A stretch of DNA of 64,000 nucleotides from Halioglobus sp. GTDB lineage: Bacteria; Pseudomonadota; Gammaproteobacteria; Pseudomonadales; Halieaceae. Positions 4,994-49,308 of the stretch are shown piece by piece. Every line of letters starts with the position of its first letter. The first letter of the stretch is position 1. A program made the position numbers and the translations under genes. Under the pieces are notes generated by a model. The model saw only the letters and a program-made list of their open reading frames with translations. It did not search any database and was not told the origin of the DNA. The stretch is from contig JAPKAY010000011.1 in assembly GCA_028825045.1 (NCBI GenBank), forward strand, positions 17,161 through 81,160, given 5' to 3'.

Positions 4994-5899
4994 TCAGGCA
5001 ACCACTATGTGGCGCAGCAGCGATCCATACCCAGGAAACACCGGCACGTCATCCAGTGCCTGGCGCGAGCGCAAGTGCCACCGCAACTTGGCTAACTTGT
5101 AGCAGGGCACGCTCGCCATAAAGTGGTGTTCCAAATGATAGTTTACGCCAAGGGGCGCAAAGATCAGACGCTGCCACCAGGGAGCAACCACGGTTCGGGT
5201 GTTCAGGCGGGGATCGGGGTCGAACAAATCTGGCACAGCAGCGTGTTCCGCGACTTGTCGCACTCGAATAATCAGCATAAAGACCGTCATGTAGGCAGTC
5301 GCCCACAGCAAATAGGTCCAGCCAATTCCACAGATAGCCAGAATAAAAAATAGAAATAGTTGGACCAGCAACTGCAGCACAAATGGCCTGGCCGATGCTC
5401 GTTTCTCACTGGACATCACGCCTGAAGCTCCGCGCAGGATATAGGACATCAGCTTAAATCCGGTCTGGCCGGTCAGGTCTCTTATGACTTTACGTTTAAA
5501 ACTCGCGCGCGAAATAGGGTAGGCCTGATAATTTGGCAAATCAGGATCCTCCCGACTACCCGCCTTGCGGTGATGCTCCAGATGACCTTTTGCGTAGGAA
5601 GGTTGATCATTCATGACCGGCAGCGCGCACAACCACTGACCGACAATATCGTTAAGTTTTGCCGTACGGAAAAAATTGCGATGCCCGCAATCGTGCATCA
5701 ATACGGATAAGGCCATCTGCCTGCTCGCGAGCAAGATGACTGCCAGTACTAAGGTCAGGGGGTTGGTCCAGGCTGCCACTGTGGCAAAAATTGCCGCAAT
5801 GAATAACCAGTTTCCCAGCACCAGACTCCCCGCGCGCAGATCGCTTTTGGCCGTAAAAAATACCACGTCCTCACGAGACAAATATTCACTTACTTTCAT
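4994..5899 (-). CDS. Membrane fatty acid desaturase family protein
   Basis: Three His boxes (HDCGH, HLEHH, YHLEHH) with hydrophobic segments between them. Confidence 0.88.
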   Translation of the reverse strand: MKVSEYLSREDVVFFTAKSDLRAGSLVLGNWLFIAAIFATVAAWTNPLTLVLAVILLASRQMALSVLMHDCGHRNFFRTAKLNDIVGQWLCALPVMNDQPSYAKGHLEHHRKAGSREDPDLPNYQAYPISRASFKRKVIRDLTGQTGFKLMSYILRGASGVMSSEKRASARPFVLQLLVQLFLFFILAICGIGWTYLLWATAYMTVFMLIIRVRQVAEHAAVPDLFDPDPRLNTRTVVAPWWQRLIFAPLGVNYHLEHHFMASVPCYKLAKLRWHLRSRQALDDVPVFPGYGSLLRHIVVA

Positions 5900-6208: not shown

Positions 6209-7132
6209 TTAACGCAAAAGTTCCGGCGCCAGATTCTCGATTTGGCGCTTGATACCTTCACGCCACTCCATTTTTGTCTCGCCAATCAGTTCATGCATTA
6301 TTTGAGTATCGATACACAAACTACCGAAAGCTTTGGGGTTGTCCTGGAATTTTGGCTCGAACCCCGTTAACTCGCTAATGTAGGCACACCATTCCTCAAT
6401 GCTGACTTTTTGTGATCCGCCGAAATTCGTCGTCGTCACCTCAGTGGTGGCCGCACCCAGCAAGTAGGGTATTTTCTCGATGTAGTCATTGACGTGCAGT
6501 GGGTTGTAGTAATTAGGTTTTTCCGGGTGCAAGTCGATAGGGATGCCCTTCTGCATCATCAGCATGTGAAAGTACATCCAGCCGCCATTGTCGCCGTAAG
6601 GCACACTCAGGCGCGCTATGGTGGTTGGGATTTTATGCTGATGCGCGACGAAGCGACATACAGTTTCGGCTGCTATCTTGGAGATACTGTAAGTGGGGAA
6701 CATAACACGGTGGTTGTCGCCCAGGGGCGCATTCTCCGCGCGCGGTTCCTGACCGACATACTCGTAGACGGCAGTAGAGGAGAAATGGAGGAACGCCTTG
6801 GCACTACGGCAGCGCATCATCAAGTTGCCGACGCCCTCCGCATTGGCGGCGAGGTCGTAATCGAAATCACCGCTTTTCACTACAGCGAAGTTCAACACGT
6901 AGTCGAAGTCATCGGGCAGAGCGTCAAGACTGGCAGCATCGGCAAGATCAGCCTGAACAACTGTGGCACCGAGACTTTCAATTCTCTCTCGATCTTCGGA
7001 CTTGCGAAAACGCGCTAACGCATACACATCAGCTATCTTGGCGAAATGCTCCACCACAGGCAGCGCCACTTGTCCCGTGGGACCAGTGATAAGAATTTTC
7101 ATGTCCTTGAGATCGACCGGTTTTGCAGACAT
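6209..7132 (-). CDS. Extended SDR, NAD-dependent epimerase/dehydratase family
   Basis: TGPTGQVA Rossmann motif, SSTAVY, and YSISK (YxxxK). Confidence 0.85.
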   Translation of the reverse strand: MSAKPVDLKDMKILITGPTGQVALPVVEHFAKIADVYALARFRKSEDRERIESLGATVVQADLADAASLDALPDDFDYVLNFAVVKSGDFDYDLAANAEGVGNLMMRCRSAKAFLHFSSTAVYEYVGQEPRAENAPLGDNHRVMFPTYSISKIAAETVCRFVAHQHKIPTTIARLSVPYGDNGGWMYFHMLMMQKGIPIDLHPEKPNYYNPLHVNDYIEKIPYLLGAATTEVTTTNFGGSQKVSIEEWCAYISELTGFEPKFQDNPKAFGSLCIDTQIMHELIGETKMEWREGIKRQIENLAPELLR

Positions 7133-7166
7133 GAATAAAACTCCTAGTTGTTAGTGGATTGGAAGG

Positions 7167-8234
7167 TCAGGCGCTTGCTCGAGGGTAGCTACAGTAGCCC
7201 TCGGCACCCGGGGAATAGAGGGTTGCCATATCAAAACTGGCCAGTTCCACACCATCACGCCAACGCTCGACAAGGTCTGGATTGGCAATGAAATTGCGGC
7301 CAAACGATACCGCCGTTAATTCGCCCTCAATGACAGCTAATTGCGCTTCATCGAAACCGTAGCTCTCGTTGCCTATCAGACGGTCTCCAAAAAAACGTTG
7401 CCCTAATGCGATATTGTCTACCCGACCCGCAGGAAAACGTATGACGTGAAGATAGGCCAAACCCATAGCCGAGGCGGCTTCGAGCAGGCACTCGAATGTC
7501 TCTTGCGGATCATCATCGTGCATATCGTTGAACGGGTTGTCGGGGCATATGCGCAGACCGACGCGATCGGCGCCGCGGACATCAGACATTGCCTCAAGAA
7601 CTTCCATCGCAAAGCGCATTCTGTTGAGGGCGCTGCCGCCGTAGCGATCCGTGCGCTGGTTACTCCCCGTGGCCAAAAACTGGGCCGGAAGATAACCGCT
7701 GGTGCAGTGTAATTCAACGCCATCGAAACCGGCAGCGTACGCGTTTTCCGTTGCCCTTCTATATTGCTCAATAACCGAAGCGATTTCTCCTAGTGCGAGT
7801 TCTCTAGGCTCCTCTAAACTTTGCATTCCACTCTGATCTGTATACATTCTTCCAGCAGCTTTTACCGCCGAAGGCGCAACCGTTTCACTCCCGGGAGGTT
7901 TGTTGAGTGCACTGGCCACCCGACCCACATGCATGAGTTGAGCAACCATACAACCGCCAGCCTCATGTACTCCTTGAGTGACCAACCGCCACGCGTCAGT
8001 CTGCGCCTCATTGTATATGCCCGGAGTGCGACAGTACCCAAGACCATCTGCGCTGGGCGCAATTCCTTCTGAAACTATCAAGCCCGCACTGGCACGTTGC
8101 CTGTAATAATCTACCATGAGCGCAGTAGGAACCCCATCAACGCCGGCGCGACTGCGAGTCATGGGCGCCATCACAATACGGTTGCGCATCGACAGCGCGC
8201 CTAGTTTCGATGGAGTAAACAGATCCATAGTCAT
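7167..8234 (-). CDS. Old yellow enzyme / alkene reductase (NemA-like, FMN)
   Basis: NRIVMAPMTRSRA, QLMHVGR, AGFDGVELH, SNQRTDRYGGS, FGRNFIANPDLV and C-terminal LY...EGY..YP. Confidence 0.9.
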   Translation of the reverse strand: MTMDLFTPSKLGALSMRNRIVMAPMTRSRAGVDGVPTALMVDYYRQRASAGLIVSEGIAPSADGLGYCRTPGIYNEAQTDAWRLVTQGVHEAGGCMVAQLMHVGRVASALNKPPGSETVAPSAVKAAGRMYTDQSGMQSLEEPRELALGEIASVIEQYRRATENAYAAGFDGVELHCTSGYLPAQFLATGSNQRTDRYGGSALNRMRFAMEVLEAMSDVRGADRVGLRICPDNPFNDMHDDDPQETFECLLEAASAMGLAYLHVIRFPAGRVDNIALGQRFFGDRLIGNESYGFDEAQLAVIEGELTAVSFGRNFIANPDLVERWRDGVELASFDMATLYSPGAEGYCSYPRASA

Positions 8235-8236
8235 TC

Positions 8237-8878
8237 CTAACGCACGCGTATCTTCGGTTCTGGTGCCCCGCGCCGCATGCTTGTGAGAAATTGATCCAGC
8301 GGCGCTGGAGCCGCCACCTCAGGCTCGCTCTGGTCGGCTTGAGTGACCCAGAACTCTTTCCAGCTAGGCCACAACTCGTGGTAGGCGCCCTCATAGGACT
8401 CCCGGTCTGGCCAGCGCATCTTATTGTCCCCTACAGGGGGCTTGTTGATATCTGTGGCATACCAATAACAGGGTAGACGGCGACGAAAGTACCAACGTCC
8501 GTCGCGGCGTTCGTAATTGTCCCAGTAGAGCATTTGCATAATGACCCACTCATTACCACCCTCTTTACAGGGTGTCTCGTGCTCGTTCTTGGAATACACA
8601 ACGCCGTGGGCGTGATCTACATCCCCAAACTCAATGATATGATTTCCTATATGGTGGGACGTGCCAATAAATTGCTGTCGTAGGGTATCGTCTAACCAAC
8701 TTTTAAGATGCCCACGACCGACCTTATCGCGACTCACCCGAATGTCGGACACGAACAGATTTACATGCGCGTCCATATCACGCATGTCCAGAGACAGTGA
8801 GTATTTGGCTACTAGCTGACGGATTTCATCCAGGGATTCCAGTCGATCAATACGCGCAAGCAAAGTCTGATCACTCAT
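8237..8878 (-). CDS. SnoaL_4/NTF2-like protein (BaiE/LinA-like dehydratase fold)
   Basis: RLESLDEIRQLVAKY(26)..LD(31), then SH(75)HIGNHII and YWDNYERRDGRWYFRRR. Confidence 0.8.
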   Translation of the reverse strand: MSDQTLLARIDRLESLDEIRQLVAKYSLSLDMRDMDAHVNLFVSDIRVSRDKVGRGHLKSWLDDTLRQQFIGTSHHIGNHIIEFGDVDHAHGVVYSKNEHETPCKEGGNEWVIMQMLYWDNYERRDGRWYFRRRLPCYWYATDINKPPVGDNKMRWPDRESYEGAYHELWPSWKEFWVTQADQSEPEVAAPAPLDQFLTSMRRGAPEPKIRVR

Positions 8879-11643: not shown

Positions 11644-12348
11644 TCAGTTATTCCTGACCATGACGGCCAAGTTTCGGGTGTATTTGAGTTGTTTCTCATT
11701 CGGATGGCGCAGAAACAATGCTCGATAAAACATCGTTGTCAGCAATTCGGCAATCTGCTCCACGGTAAGCTGCGCTACCCCCAGTGTTTTGCTTTCATTG
11801 ATAAATTGTTCACGTATAAGCCCTTCGCCAATACCCGCAAGAGAATATACGACCATCAACGCCTGGTGCTTTTTAAAGCGCACCTCCGGGAACAGCTTGG
11901 GCATCAGATCTACCAGCCACATCAGTTGATTGCGATAGTTCTCACGCAGCATGGCAGAGAAGGCCTCGTCTTCATCCGCCAGTTGCAGCAAGCAACGCAT
12001 CGCGCCGGGTCGCTTTGCATAACTGCGCACAATCACCAAATTGTGAGCATAAATGCGGGCGTACCAGTCTCCTTTGGATACGTTTTTTTCTATCTTCGAA
12101 AGATCGTTGCTCGCCATGGCAAAATCCGTTAATACTTCCAGGGTCAGTGATTTCAGATCTTTGAAATAGTGATAGAACAACCCCTGGGCGACGCCCGCCT
12201 CGCCAGTCACGTCGGCTATACGCATCTTGTGGTAGCCCTGACGCTCCAGCACGACAAGCGCAGCTTCTTTGAGTCCCGCGCGTGCGCGCTCTCCTCGGGC
12301 GCTTCGCACACCGTTTTGCTTTGCAGTTTTAGATGCTGTTGATGCCAT
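11644..12348 (-). CDS. TetR/AcrR family transcriptional regulator
   Basis: GYHKMRIADVTGEAGVAQGLFYHYFKD helix-turn-helix. First gene of the left arm. Confidence 0.92.
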   Translation of the reverse strand: MASTASKTAKQNGVRSARGERARAGLKEAALVVLERQGYHKMRIADVTGEAGVAQGLFYHYFKDLKSLTLEVLTDFAMASNDLSKIEKNVSKGDWYARIYAHNLVIVRSYAKRPGAMRCLLQLADEDEAFSAMLRENYRNQLMWLVDLMPKLFPEVRFKKHQALMVVYSLAGIGEGLIREQFINESKTLGVAQLTVEQIAELLTTMFYRALFLRHPNEKQLKYTRNLAVMVRNN

Positions 12349-46561: not shown

Positions 46562-48271
46562 ATGCCCGTGAACAATTCAGATCTGGAAGTGGACTGGCTG
46601 GTGGCAGGTGCCGGGGCTGCTGGCATGACTGGCGCTGTTGTTGCGAATCAGTTGGGCGGGTCGGTACTGGTAGTTGAGAAAGAAGCTGTCTATGGCGGTA
46701 CCACTGCAAAATCTGGCGGAGTGGCCTGGATCCCTGCAAATCATCGCCAGGCAGAGGTTCATGTAGAGGATACTACCGAAGAAGGCTATGCGTATCTCAA
46801 AGCGCTGATCGGTGACAGCGTGAGCGATGCCCGCATCCGGGCCTATGCAGAGCGTGCAAAAGAGATGTTGCAGTTCATGATGCAACACAGCCATGTCCAG
46901 TATTCTGCGCTGCCAAAATACATGGACTACTACGAACATCTCAAAGGGTACAAAGTGGGCGGGCGGTCCATGGACAACACTCCCATCAACCTCCGCCGAC
47001 TGGGCTCTGATGCGGCAAGCATCAGGCTGGGCCACTACGATGGTCTCATGCCGTTCAATGTCACCGTCCAGGAAGGCCAGCGCCTGCAGGAAATGGACGC
47101 TGGCGCCTATCTGCTTGGCATGCGCCTGCTATTGCGTTTTCTATTGGACATTCCCGCTCGGTTCAAGCACAAACGTGATGACCGACTTACCCTTGGGCCT
47201 GCGCTGGTCGCTCGATTGCGTCTATCACTACAGGACAGAAAGATCCCACTGTGGCTGGATTCCCCGATTCAGGAACTCGTACTAGACAAGGGGCGAGTCT
47301 GCGGAGCGCTAGTGCAACGTGCCGGCACCACCACACGCGTCAGTGCACGGCGTGGCGTGCTCTTGGCCACGGGCGGTTTTTCTCACAACGCGGAAATGCG
47401 CAGACAATATCAGCAGGCACCCATTGGTAATGAGTGGACCTCTGCAGCGCCAGGAGCGACAGGTGATGCGGTCGTACTGGGGCAAAAAATTGGCGCGGCC
47501 CTGGGCTTCATGGAATGTGCCTGGTGGTCTCCCACTTACACCATACCGGATGGACGAGTACTGGCACTGATCGCTGGAAAATCCAATCCCGGCTCTATCA
47601 TGGTCAATCGCCTGGGTAAACGCTTTGCTAATGAAGCTCAGCCTTACGAGGACCTGGTTAAAGCGCAATACATCAGTGATGCCAAAGGTGAACAGACTAT
47701 TCCCTGTTACCTGGTATTTGACGCTATTTATCGCAAAAAATACGCTGTCGGACACATCAAGCCAGGAAAAGTGGAAGATGATAAAAAGCTTGATCCAGCT
47801 AACTTCGAAACCGGACTGCTCACCAAAGCGGATAGTTTGGAAGAACTCGCGCGCAAGTTAGAGATTAACCCAGGCGTGCTACAGGATACTGTGAAACAGT
47901 TTAATCGCCATGCCCTCAATGGTGAGGACCCACTCTTTGACCGCGGCGTGAGCGAGCATGATCGGTACTATGCAGACAAATCGGTCAAGCCCAATCCATC
48001 CCTGGGCCCACTGGACACGCCTCCTTACTACGCCCTGCGCTGCGACCCGGGCGACTTAGATACCAAAGGGGGATTACAGTGCGATGAACTGGCGCGCGTT
48101 ATCAATACTGACGGTGCAGTCATCAAGGGGCTGTATGCTGCCGGCAATGCCAGCGCGGCTGCCATGGGCAATACCTATCCGGGCGCAGGCGCGACCATCG
48201 GCTCAGCCATGACTTTTGCGTATATAGCAGCGCAAAATGCCTTTGCTCCCAACTCCACTTCGGAGGAATAG
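46562..48271 (+). CDS. kstD: 3-ketosteroid delta-1-dehydrogenase
   Basis: GAGAAG, GGTTAKSGG..WIP.N, MDYY, ATGGF.HN..MR, FANEAQPY, GDLDTKGGL and YPGAGATIG; the Tyr/Gly catalytic motifs are present. Adjacent to kshA. Confidence 0.82.
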   Translation: MPVNNSDLEVDWLVAGAGAAGMTGAVVANQLGGSVLVVEKEAVYGGTTAKSGGVAWIPANHRQAEVHVEDTTEEGYAYLKALIGDSVSDARIRAYAERAKEMLQFMMQHSHVQYSALPKYMDYYEHLKGYKVGGRSMDNTPINLRRLGSDAASIRLGHYDGLMPFNVTVQEGQRLQEMDAGAYLLGMRLLLRFLLDIPARFKHKRDDRLTLGPALVARLRLSLQDRKIPLWLDSPIQELVLDKGRVCGALVQRAGTTTRVSARRGVLLATGGFSHNAEMRRQYQQAPIGNEWTSAAPGATGDAVVLGQKIGAALGFMECAWWSPTYTIPDGRVLALIAGKSNPGSIMVNRLGKRFANEAQPYEDLVKAQYISDAKGEQTIPCYLVFDAIYRKKYAVGHIKPGKVEDDKKLDPANFETGLLTKADSLEELARKLEINPGVLQDTVKQFNRHALNGEDPLFDRGVSEHDRYYADKSVKPNPSLGPLDTPPYYALRCDPGDLDTKGGLQCDELARVINTDGAVIKGLYAAGNASAAAMGNTYPGAGATIGSAMTFAYIAAQNAFAPNSTSEE

Positions 48272-48273
48272 GC

Positions 48274-49308
48274 ATGGCGACGCACAAATACGCTTTTCTC
48301 AAAGAGGGCCATTACGCCAGAGGGTGGCACGTTGTCCTTTTTTCGCAGGAGTTGAAAATAGGTGAGGTTAAAAAGCTGCACTATTTTGACCATGACTTTG
48401 TCGCCTACCGCGGGGAGTCCGGCCGCGCTGCGATCCTTGATGCCCACTGCCCTCATCTAGGCGCGTCCCTTGCCAGTGGTGAGGGACGCGTGCTGGGCGA
48501 CAATATCGCCTGCCCGTTTCACGGCTGGACCTTCGACCCCACTGGCCAGTGTGTCGATATTCCCTATGCCAAATCCATCCCTCAAAAAGCAGCGCATGCC
48601 CTAAAGGGATGGCCGGTGTTAGAACAAAACGGGTTTATCGCTCTTTGGTACGACCGCCAAGAGAATAAGCCTGAACTCTATTTACCCGACATTCCCCAGT
48701 GGGGGCCCAACGGCTGGGGCGACTGGGTGTTTTATCGTTCGCGGATTCGGGCCCAGCCCTGTGACATCATCGAAAACATCGTCGACATCGCGCATTTCCC
48801 ACACGTGCACGGTGGCTTTGTTACGTCATGGGAAAATCGCTTTGACGAACGCAGCGTAACGCAGCTATCGACAATCAAACAGGACCCAGACGCCAACATG
48901 ATTATCCCGGAGGGTGTGGTCCTGGACGTTAAGGCAGCGCGCAGTGAGGCGGGTGACGACGCAGATGCCTGGGGTGACGCTACTTATCATGGGCCGTCCA
49001 TCATGTACTACTATACCGAGTCGAAAAGTGCGGATATCAGTTTCAGAAGTTGGTGGGTAAACTGCCACACGCCTGTTAACGCCACTGAGGTTGATTTGTG
49101 TTCAGCGGTTATGGTCAGCGGTTTGAATGATGAGCCCCTGCCGGAGGAGTTTGCGCAGTTGTATCCACAAATGGCGCACGTGGCTTTTGGCCAGGACGTA
49201 GAGATTTGGAAAGACAAAGTGTATCGGGAAGACCCTATTTTGTGTGATGGCGACGGTCCCATCAATAAACTGCGGAGCTGGTACGAGCAGTTTTATCTAC
49301 CAAAGTGA
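48274..49308 (+). CDS. kshA: Rieske oxygenase, 3-ketosteroid 9-alpha-hydroxylase KshA-like
   Basis: YARGWH, CPHLG and CPFHGW Rieske ligands, ENIVDIAHFPHVH Fe site, and QDVEIWKDK...P.LCDGDGPI..LR.WYEQFY. Confidence 0.78.
   Translation: MATHKYAFLKEGHYARGWHVVLFSQELKIGEVKKLHYFDHDFVAYRGESGRAAILDAHCPHLGASLASGEGRVLGDNIACPFHGWTFDPTGQCVDIPYAKSIPQKAAHALKGWPVLEQNGFIALWYDRQENKPELYLPDIPQWGPNGWGDWVFYRSRIRAQPCDIIENIVDIAHFPHVHGGFVTSWENRFDERSVTQLSTIKQDPDANMIIPEGVVLDVKAARSEAGDDADAWGDATYHGPSIMYYYTESKSADISFRSWWVNCHTPVNATEVDLCSAVMVSGLNDEPLPEEFAQLYPQMAHVAFGQDVEIWKDKVYREDPILCDGDGPINKLRSWYEQFYLPK

Follow-up and report, generated by a model that had tools for sequence, protein, structure and literature searches.

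A candidate steroid-ring dehydroxylation module related to Hsh1/Sor1 (SteC/SteD) in a side-chain operon of Halioglobus

Hsh1 and Sor1 form a two-step system for reductive dehydroxylation (PMC8399759). The same system, also known as SteC/SteD, acts on HIP-type intermediates, from which it removes the 12beta-hydroxyl (12beta-OH) adjacent to the 9-oxo group (PMC8399759; bioRxiv 10.1101/2023.02.02.526766). SteC (ORF7) is an NTF2-family protein related to LinA and to ketosteroid isomerase (KSI), and SteD (ORF6) is an alkene reductase resembling the Old Yellow Enzymes (OYEs). Mutants and their complementation identified SteC as the 12beta-OH dehydratase and SteD as the double-bond reductase, with dehydration occurring first; in the preceding steps, SteA converts the 12alpha-OH to a ketone and SteB converts the ketone to the 12beta-OH (bioRxiv 10.1101/2023.02.02.526766). 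Homologues of Hsh1/Sor1 adjoin steA/steB in Comamonas testosteroni, Sphingobium sp. Chol11 (Nov2c12, 13, 15 and 16) and Azoarcus Aa7 (PMC8399759). The characterised pairs are Hsh1/Sor1 of Pseudomonas stutzeri Chol1 (C211_RS11175/RS11180), SteC/SteD (CTCNB1_RS06500/RS06505) and Nov2c12/Nov2c13 of Chol11. Here, we consider three adjacent genes in a 64,000-nucleotide (nt) stretch of DNA from Halioglobus sp. (contig JAPKAY010000011.1; the whole stretch is referred to below as the window). They encode a SnoaL_4-fold protein, an OYE and an extended short-chain dehydrogenase/reductase (SDR):

8878-8237, minus strand: SnoaL_4/NTF2-fold protein of 213 amino acids (aa), candidate Hsh1/SteC-like hydroxysteroid dehydratase (Pfam SnoaL_4, 1.4e-21)
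8234-7167, minus strand: single-domain OYE of 355 aa, candidate Sor1/SteD-like ene-reductase (Oxidored_FMN, 1e-70)
7132-6209, minus strand: extended SDR of 307 aa, candidate TerB-like NAD(P)H ketoreductase (Pfam Epimerase, 1.9e-21)

The trio is probably a module for the reductive dehydroxylation of a steroid ring that is homologous to Hsh1/Sor1 (SteC/SteD), and the hydroxyl most likely to be removed is that at C12 in bile salts of the cholate type or in bile alcohols. Judged from its genes, the module is a putative member of the known Hsh1/Sor1 system with a swapped SDR, and the enzyme pair would be one that is already described in the literature. Three features of this variant stand out: a TerB-like SDR stands in for SteA/SteB, the module is inserted in a side-chain operon, and the OYE has a His/Ser active site.

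Relatives of the SnoaL-OYE pair

What places these genes in the Hsh1/Sor1 family? First, there is the gene order around homologues in sphingomonads. In cluster bsd II of Caenibius tardaugens, which is induced by cholate, genes for SteB, SteA, a third SDR, and Sor1- and Hsh1-like proteins occur with an AraC regulator (PMC12882949), and the Chol11 cluster is reported to hold steA-steD, 5beta-delta4-KstD1 and a 3alpha-dehydrogenase (bioRxiv 10.64898/2026.09.18.752586). The Sphingobium herbicidovorans MH locus has an AraC gene and then NTF2-OYE-SDR-SDR-SDR, followed by genes for an FAD oxidoreductase of 717 aa and for an aldo/keto reductase, an order that reproduces the organisation of bsd II and of the Chol11 cluster (PMC12882949; bioRxiv 10.64898/2026.09.18.752586; 10.1101/2021.05.19.444901). 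Because the MH locus mirrors the published clusters, the sphingomonad genes are read as Hsh1/Sor1 orthologues. The window SnoaL protein is 64% identical, and the window OYE 49-56% identical, to the sphingomonad and Cupriavidus homologues, and the window genes are therefore assigned to the same family. The sphingomonad loci also hold a set of amidase, Rieske, acyl-CoA dehydrogenase (ACAD) and CoA-ligase genes, which corresponds to the cluster for bile-salt side chains published for Sphingobium sp. Chol11 and for strains F199 and MH (bioRxiv 10.1101/2021.05.19.444901; 10.1101/2021.06.24.449856).

These homologues came from a search of plasmids, which returned full-length SnoaL relatives (62-68% identity) in Novosphingobium aromaticivorans DSM 12444 (pNL2), Novosphingobium sp. 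ES2-1, S. herbicidovorans MH and other Sphingobium strains, Vibrio alfacsensis and Cupriavidus necator. In four annotated loci, a gene for a "nuclear transport factor 2 family protein" lies in a run with an "alkene reductase" gene and between one and three SDR genes. The Cupriavidus locus is unannotated; there, an OYE open reading frame (ORF) of 370 aa follows the SnoaL homologue. The two genes are directly adjacent in Novosphingobium, Sphingobium and Cupriavidus, and are separated by one SDR gene in Vibrio, where the plasmid row reads FadD3, FAD-dependent oxidoreductase, SDR, OYE, SDR, NTF2. Other named homologues, from Denitratisoma oestradiolicum, Sterolibacterium, Thauera and Steroidobacteraceae, belong to organisms that degrade steroids or to the genera of such organisms. 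When the Cupriavidus and Pseudomonas homologues were used as queries, no C. testosteroni or P. stutzeri Chol1 protein was among the matches listed, and cluster representatives at 50% identity were only Mycolicibacterium and metagenome proteins.

Second, the SnoaL-OYE arrangement is widespread. The comparative set consisted of 80 genomic loci (L001-L080) encoding close relatives of the SnoaL protein (77%-95% identity), the closest named ones being from Halioglobus, Haliea and Parahaliea. An OYE gene lies directly 3' of the SnoaL gene in ~70 of the 80 loci and, under a stricter filter, in 63 of the 78 with enough downstream flank. Since ~70 of 80 related loci share this order with alpha-, beta- and other gammaproteobacteria, the arrangement is not due to chance. 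Of 150 good-quality Halieaceae genomes, 101 have the SnoaL-family gene, compared with only 4 of 400 genomes sampled across the class. In four loci (L029, L061, L066 and L071), a KstD-like FAD_binding_2 flavoprotein of ~500 aa follows SnoaL and replaces the OYE.

Third, the neighbouring genes are of a steroid type. KshA-like, KstD-like or ChsH2-ChsH1-Ltp2 genes sit beside the pair in other Halieaceae, and KshA-like, KstD-like or ChsH neighbours occur within 8-9 kb in 47 of 82 loci. The Ltp/DUF35 gene pair precedes SnoaL only in the closest, Halioglobus-type genomes; an ACAD gene lies immediately 5' of SnoaL, with no DUF35-Ltp pair, in eight related loci.

Residues and folds of the three proteins

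The first-pass annotation of this stretch had noted Tyr26-x4-Asp31 and His75/His76 in the SnoaL protein, and counting along the translation confirmed all four positions. In a family alignment of 66 diverse relatives, Tyr26 and Asp31 are each present in 65 sequences and His75 in 58, and Arg134 is invariant; Tyr95, Glu99, Tyr118, Asp120 and Tyr122 are also conserved, and His76 is rare (7/66). The candidate catalytic residues are kept in all five plasmid homologues. The protein consists of a core (residues 1-143) and a conserved C-terminal tail (residues 144-205) that solved relatives lack, and an AF2 model (pLDDT 95) includes the tail with confidence.

The fold is that of an NTF2-family dehydratase related to LinA. 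The same annotation had modelled the protein on BaiE and Hsh2, and had called for a structural alignment. That alignment does identify an elimination enzyme of the BaiE/LinA type, and does not single out BaiE: comparison of the model by Foldseek/VIA-align gave Z 18.0 for BaiE (4L8O; rmsd 2.4 over 144 residues), tied with LinA (Z 17.2) and 3EF8 (Z 17.0), ahead of scytalone dehydratase (Z 14-15) and KSI (Z ~13). At the sequence level, BaiE is not the closest relative. With the single sequence, phmmer against the PDB gave 9e-6 for 3EF8, 7e-5 for LinA and E 0.14 for BaiE; the family profile gave near-equal matches (5e-16, 7e-14 and 5e-13, respectively). In the profile alignment, Tyr26, Asp31 and His75 fall on the catalytic positions Tyr30, Asp35 and His83 of BaiE, as counted on the tagged PDB chain. 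Asp31, His75 and Arg134 fall on the LinA triad Asp25, His73 and Arg129, and the position of Arg134 is Thr in BaiE.

S. herbicidovorans provides a further view of BaiE-like proteins. A gene for a BaiE/Hsh2-like NTF2 protein of 168 aa lies ~6 kb upstream of its module homologue (locus L106, plasmid pMSHV, 3946-4452). BaiE is the sole match of this protein (5e-11), and only 43 of its residues can be aligned to the window SnoaL protein. Because both types occur side by side in this replicon, the BaiE/Hsh2 family is distinct from the 213-aa family. An "EthD family reductase" gene (L106, 6075-6887) also lies within the 6 kb upstream of the Hsh1/Sor1-like cluster. Hsh3, the published 7beta-dehydratase, is an EthD-domain protein. 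Three putative ring-dehydroxylation functions may therefore be clustered on the S. herbicidovorans megaplasmid.

The best PDB matches of the OYE are GTN reductase, NemA, PETNR and morphinone reductase (4e-91 to 1e-76), and its score with the NemA NCBIfam model (307.6) is under the cut-off of 403. The proposal that BaiCD and BaiH are its models did not hold up. Those enzymes have a two-part architecture of ~640 aa, in which an OYE domain is joined to an FAD/NAD(P) domain and there is an Fe-S cluster, whereas the window protein has a single domain; it reaches 105.6 bits against the NCBIfam BaiCD model (cut-off 825) and matches model positions 3-203 of 642. The active-site motif is His176-Cys-Thr-Ser179-Gly-Tyr181, in place of the His-x-x-His/Asn-Gly-Tyr that is usual for OYEs and characteristic of class I members such as NemA and PETNR, and Met replaces the Trp of QLWHxGR. 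The form H-x-x-S-G-Y is found in 75 of 78 OYE matches of the related loci, 61 of which have exactly HCTSGY, and the OYEs of the four annotated plasmid loci have the motif HC[AT]SGYLP. The seven other OYE-family paralogues of the same genome all have H-x-x-H. This distribution points to the SnoaL-linked OYEs being a distinctive His/Ser clade dedicated to steroid enones. We found no description of a His/Ser OYE clade.

The SDR, to which the first-pass annotation gave no role, matches the PDB oxidoreductase TerB (6D2V) from end to end (8e-48 over residues 8-306), and has the glycine motif TGPTGQ at residue 16 and a Tyr148-x3-Lys152 pair, as expected of a TerB-like extended SDR. A title cited in PMC12105029 describes a "dual reductase-dehydratase" system, in which TerB is the reductase. 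A TerB-like SDR lies 3' of SnoaL-OYE in 33 of the 70 loci with enough flank. The alternative is a classical SDR directly upstream of SnoaL: among 69 loci flanked on both sides, 56 have exactly one of the two types and none has both. Because 56 of 69 loci carry one type or the other, the SDR step seems to be part of the module. These gene patterns suggest that the SDR works with the SnoaL-OYE pair as its integral ketoreductase; the partner seems to be interchangeable between two unrelated SDR types, and the either/or pattern looks like non-orthologous displacement.

Operon context, proposed chemistry and competing explanations

The statement that three tightly spaced genes follow an Ltp gene was correct. 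The ORF map of the window has seven minus-strand ORFs running head to tail (TetR-ACAD-DUF35-Ltp-SnoaL-OYE-SDR), with intergenic gaps, from ACAD onwards, of 3, -4, 14 (Ltp/SnoaL), 2 (SnoaL/OYE) and 34 nt (OYE/SDR). The four ORFs that precede the trio, each assigned by Pfam/NCBIfam match, are:

12348-11644, minus strand: TetR
11699-10479, minus strand: ACAD
10475-10065, minus strand: stand-alone DUF35/ChsH2-C protein
10068-8893, minus strand: Ltp/SCPx thiolase-like protein

A scan of the seven-gene run for terminator and promoter patterns gave no convincing signal and nothing exceeding the shuffled expectation. The limits of the operon are therefore drawn from gene spacing, which suggests that the run from TetR to SDR is co-transcribed. 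At its longest, the ACAD ORF shares 56 nt (11644-11699) with the end of the TetR ORF, and the real ACAD start is thus probably further downstream. A gap of 309 nt separates the SDR from the next gene (4994-5899, minus strand), which encodes a membrane protein of the fatty-acid-desaturase family with weak NCBIfam matches to a GntB-like hydroxylase and CrtW; a gene of this family is again found 3' of the SnoaL-OYE module in ~20 related loci.

The remainder of the window is a steroid-type catabolic island. ChsH2/ChsH1/Ltp2 homologues lie on the opposite strand, and further genes encode a thiolase, MaoC hydratases, many SDRs and a P450, as well as:

46562-48271: KstD-like flavoprotein
48274-49308: KshA-like Rieske oxygenase

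Elsewhere in the same genome there is one other member of the 213-aa family (contig C7, 2-271; L086), which is cut by the contig end and is 77% identical over residues 124-213. This copy is followed by a divergent classical SDR gene and, further on, a ChsH1-like MaoC gene, with no adjacent OYE. The genome carries at least 15 SnoaL_4 genes that score above the Pfam cut-off, as well as five of the KshA-like type and eight of the OYE family, which indicates a large repertoire for modifying polycyclic substrates. Its only Hsh2-like match is weak (25% identity). The same seven-gene operon is found in "Halioglobus japonicus isolate BC5_1" (CACSIL010000052.1; L004), whose name resembles that of BC51, a cholesterol-degrading Halieaceae isolate from a sponge (Holert et al. 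2018). Growth of Halieaceae isolates on cholesterol has been reported (PMC5790920).

How might the module work? First, the TerB-like SDR would reduce a ring ketone to the correct alcohol epimer, giving a beta-hydroxy-ketone; this role would be that of SteB in converting a 12-oxo group to the 12beta-OH. Second, the SnoaL_4 protein would eliminate water to leave an alpha,beta-unsaturated ketone. His75, oriented by Asp31 and Arg134, would take the alpha-proton, with Tyr26 and other conserved Tyr, Asp and Glu residues polarising the carbonyl and helping the hydroxyl to depart. Third, the OYE would use NAD(P)H to reduce the C=C bond of the enone, FMNH2 supplying a hydride to the beta-carbon and Tyr181 a proton. 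The 12-hydroxyl would be removed at a 9-oxo (HIP-type) or other ketone-activated stage, with hydroxylated steroids converging on a common C/D-ring pathway. The substrate, ring position, order of steps and SDR role in this scheme are what the folds, conserved residues, gene linkage and steroid-gene context would suggest. The earlier proposal that the trio dehydrates a ring hydroxyl and then reduces the enone is, as a class of mechanism, well supported by analogy with the characterised system.

There are several points that weigh against the Hsh1/Sor1 assignment and the 12-hydroxyl as the target. The orthology to Hsh1/SteC and Sor1/SteD rests on published family descriptions and on sphingomonad synteny. 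No gene for an SDR of the SteA (12alpha-hydroxysteroid dehydrogenase) or SteB (12-ketoreductase) type is adjacent; the operon has no classical SDR, its own SDR being of the different, extended type, and the best matches in the genome to the cluster SDRs are 36%-48% identical and on other contigs. The setting is a side-chain degradation operon, yet the A ring has reportedly been removed by the time that Hsh1/Sor1 act. In the OYE, the canonical second His/Asn is missing, and the way in which this enzyme binds its substrate should therefore not be assumed. Finally, growth of Halieaceae has been shown on only one steroid, cholesterol, which lacks a 12-OH.

It is possible, if unlikely, that the Halioglobus-type operon has been re-wired, such that the pair, the side-chain genes and the TerB-like ketoreductase act together, away from C12, on steroids that retain the side chain (e.g., on 7-oxo or 7-hydroxy sterols, or bile alcohols). 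In that case, the operon would encode a full set of ketoreductase, dehydratase and enoylreductase for "carbonyl deletion" from a steroid ring, and the His/Ser OYE clade would include the delta6-reductase suspected in the delta4,6 bile-salt pathway. A literature search returned nothing relevant on OYE and SnoaL proteins with steroids, or on degradation of 7-ketocholesterol.

A doubtful explanation is the one that the first-pass annotation preferred, in which the SnoaL protein is a 7alpha-hydroxysteroid dehydratase of the BaiE/Hsh2 type. Its substrates would be 7-hydroxy-3-oxo-delta4 steroids or oxysterols, and the delta4,6-dienone so formed would be reduced at delta6 by the OYE; the SDR might serve to reduce 7-oxo groups. 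Removal of a ring hydroxyl survives from that proposal; the 7-OH target and the model enzymes chosen are probably wrong, the Hsh1/Sor1 system for the 12beta-OH being the closer fit. There is evidence on both sides. The aligned Tyr, Asp and His residues and the place of BaiE among the top structural matches are in its favour, as is the position of the module among side-chain genes, which suggests substrates with intact rings. Delta6 reduction is also suspected in Sphingobium Chol11, and the three BaiH homologues of that strain are inactive on the dienone HOCDA (bioRxiv 10.1101/2021.06.24.449856), which means that its pathway has an unassigned ene-reductase. Against it are the weak single-sequence similarity to BaiE, below that to LinA or 3EF8, the Thr of BaiE at the Arg134 position, an OYE that is not like BaiCD or BaiH, and the separate protein of S. 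herbicidovorans that matches BaiE only. In addition, the delta6 bond is reportedly not reduced before 9alpha-hydroxylation (PMC8399759).

The module could also run in the oxidative direction as a form of ring beta-oxidation, with the flavoprotein desaturating next to a ketone, the SnoaL protein hydrating the enone and the SDR oxidising the product to a 1,3-diketone for hydrolytic ring cleavage. The elimination/hydration step is reversible, the four loci mentioned above have a KstD-like dehydrogenase where the OYE would be, and several loci have alpha/beta-hydrolase genes in the vicinity of the pair. This reading is nonetheless quite improbable: OYEs are physiologically reductases, TerB is a reductase, the characterised enzymes of close fold (BaiE, LinA, scytalone dehydratase and SteC) all catalyse elimination, and mutants of the homologous pair reveal dehydration followed by reduction (bioRxiv 10.1101/2023.02.02.526766).

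It is very unlikely that the SnoaL protein is a KSI-like isomerase that brings a double bond (e.g., of delta7 or delta5,7 marine sterols) into conjugation for the OYE; delta7 bonds are frequent in marine sterols, the protein has an NTF2 fold, and there is a weak match (~3e-5) between the family profile and the N-terminal part of KSI, but the Tyr/Asp/Asp spacing of the KSI catalytic residues is unmatched, the conserved residues Asp, His and Arg are the set found in elimination enzymes, and KSI structures score well below the dehydratases (Z ~13 versus 17-18). Equally remote is a substrate other than a steroid, for instance a cyclic terpenoid, a quinone- or terphenyl-like compound or a halogenated alicycle dehydrohalogenated in the manner of LinA, with steroid genes nearby by chance: LinA and 3EF8 score as well as BaiE, the closest solved relative of the SDR acts on a benzoquinone, and some Halieaceae loci have unrelated neighbours (CitMHS, GGDEF-EAL, ATP-sulfurylase), but steroid-type neighbours are found in over half of the loci, genes for a FadD3-family ligase and an FAD-dependent oxidoreductase lie beside the Vibrio homologue, and the named homologues, including those of Denitratisoma oestradiolicum, Sterolibacterium, Novosphingobium and Sphingobium, come from steroid degraders or their genera.

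Significance and comparison with known systems

What would a dehydroxylation module of the Hsh1/Sor1 type mean for these bacteria? First, it would provide a likely function for a gene pair carried by about two thirds of the Halieaceae genomes searched. Halieaceae are abundant coastal bacteria that have so far been shown to use cholesterol only, and the pair implies that they may also handle steroids with ring hydroxyls, fish bile salts among them. Second, the reach of the published Hsh1/Sor1 module would extend past the model strains to megaplasmids of Novosphingobium and Sphingobium, plasmids of Vibrio and Cupriavidus, and Halieaceae. Third, the His/Ser OYE clade may be of interest for biocatalysis, and is a candidate pool for delta6 reduction in sphingomonads.

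The individual proteins each resemble, and differ from, characterised enzymes. Like the class I OYEs (NemA, PETNR, morphinone reductase and NerA), the window OYE is a full-length TIM-barrel FMN domain (E to 4e-91) with a conserved Tyr proton donor and conserved FMN and phosphate motifs; unlike them, it has His176/Ser179 for His/His or His/Asn and Met for Trp, and falls below the NemA cut-off. The SDR resembles TerB of p-terphenyl biosynthesis along its whole length, and the pairing of a reductase with a dehydratase is common to both, whereas the substrate of TerB/TerC is a benzoquinone in a Streptomyces biosynthetic pathway. TerC is not among the structural matches listed for the SnoaL model, which proves nothing about the fold of TerC.

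LinA (the gamma-HCH dehydrochlorinase) and 3EF8 (a "putative scytalone dehydratase" from N. aromaticivorans) are the best PDB sequence matches of the SnoaL protein and share its Asp-His-Arg triad; 3EF8 also shares the Y-x4-D and TSHH motifs. Both differ from it in being 23%-27% identical and in having neither the C-terminal tail nor an OYE partner, and LinA has Gln20 for Tyr. BaiE and Hsh2 share the SnoaL_4 fold (Z 17-18) and the aligned Tyr-x4-Asp and His positions, but are 17%-22% identical and ~168 aa long, in contrast to the 213 aa of the window protein with its 70-residue tail, and differ at Arg134.

The closest system as a whole is SteC/SteD of C. testosteroni TA441, equivalent to Hsh1/Sor1 of P. 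stutzeri Chol1. Both have an NTF2 dehydratase gene followed by a gene for a single-domain, OYE-like alkene reductase, with one or more SDRs alongside, and both are set in steroid or bile-salt catabolic clusters. The logic of ketoreduction, dehydration and ene-reduction that deletes a ring hydroxyl would also be common to both. They differ in that the window has a single TerB-like extended SDR downstream, whereas the Ste system has two classical SDRs (SteA and SteB), and in that the window trio is joined to a TetR-ACAD-DUF35-Ltp side-chain operon, whereas the Ste genes are joined to the tesB/HIP cluster.

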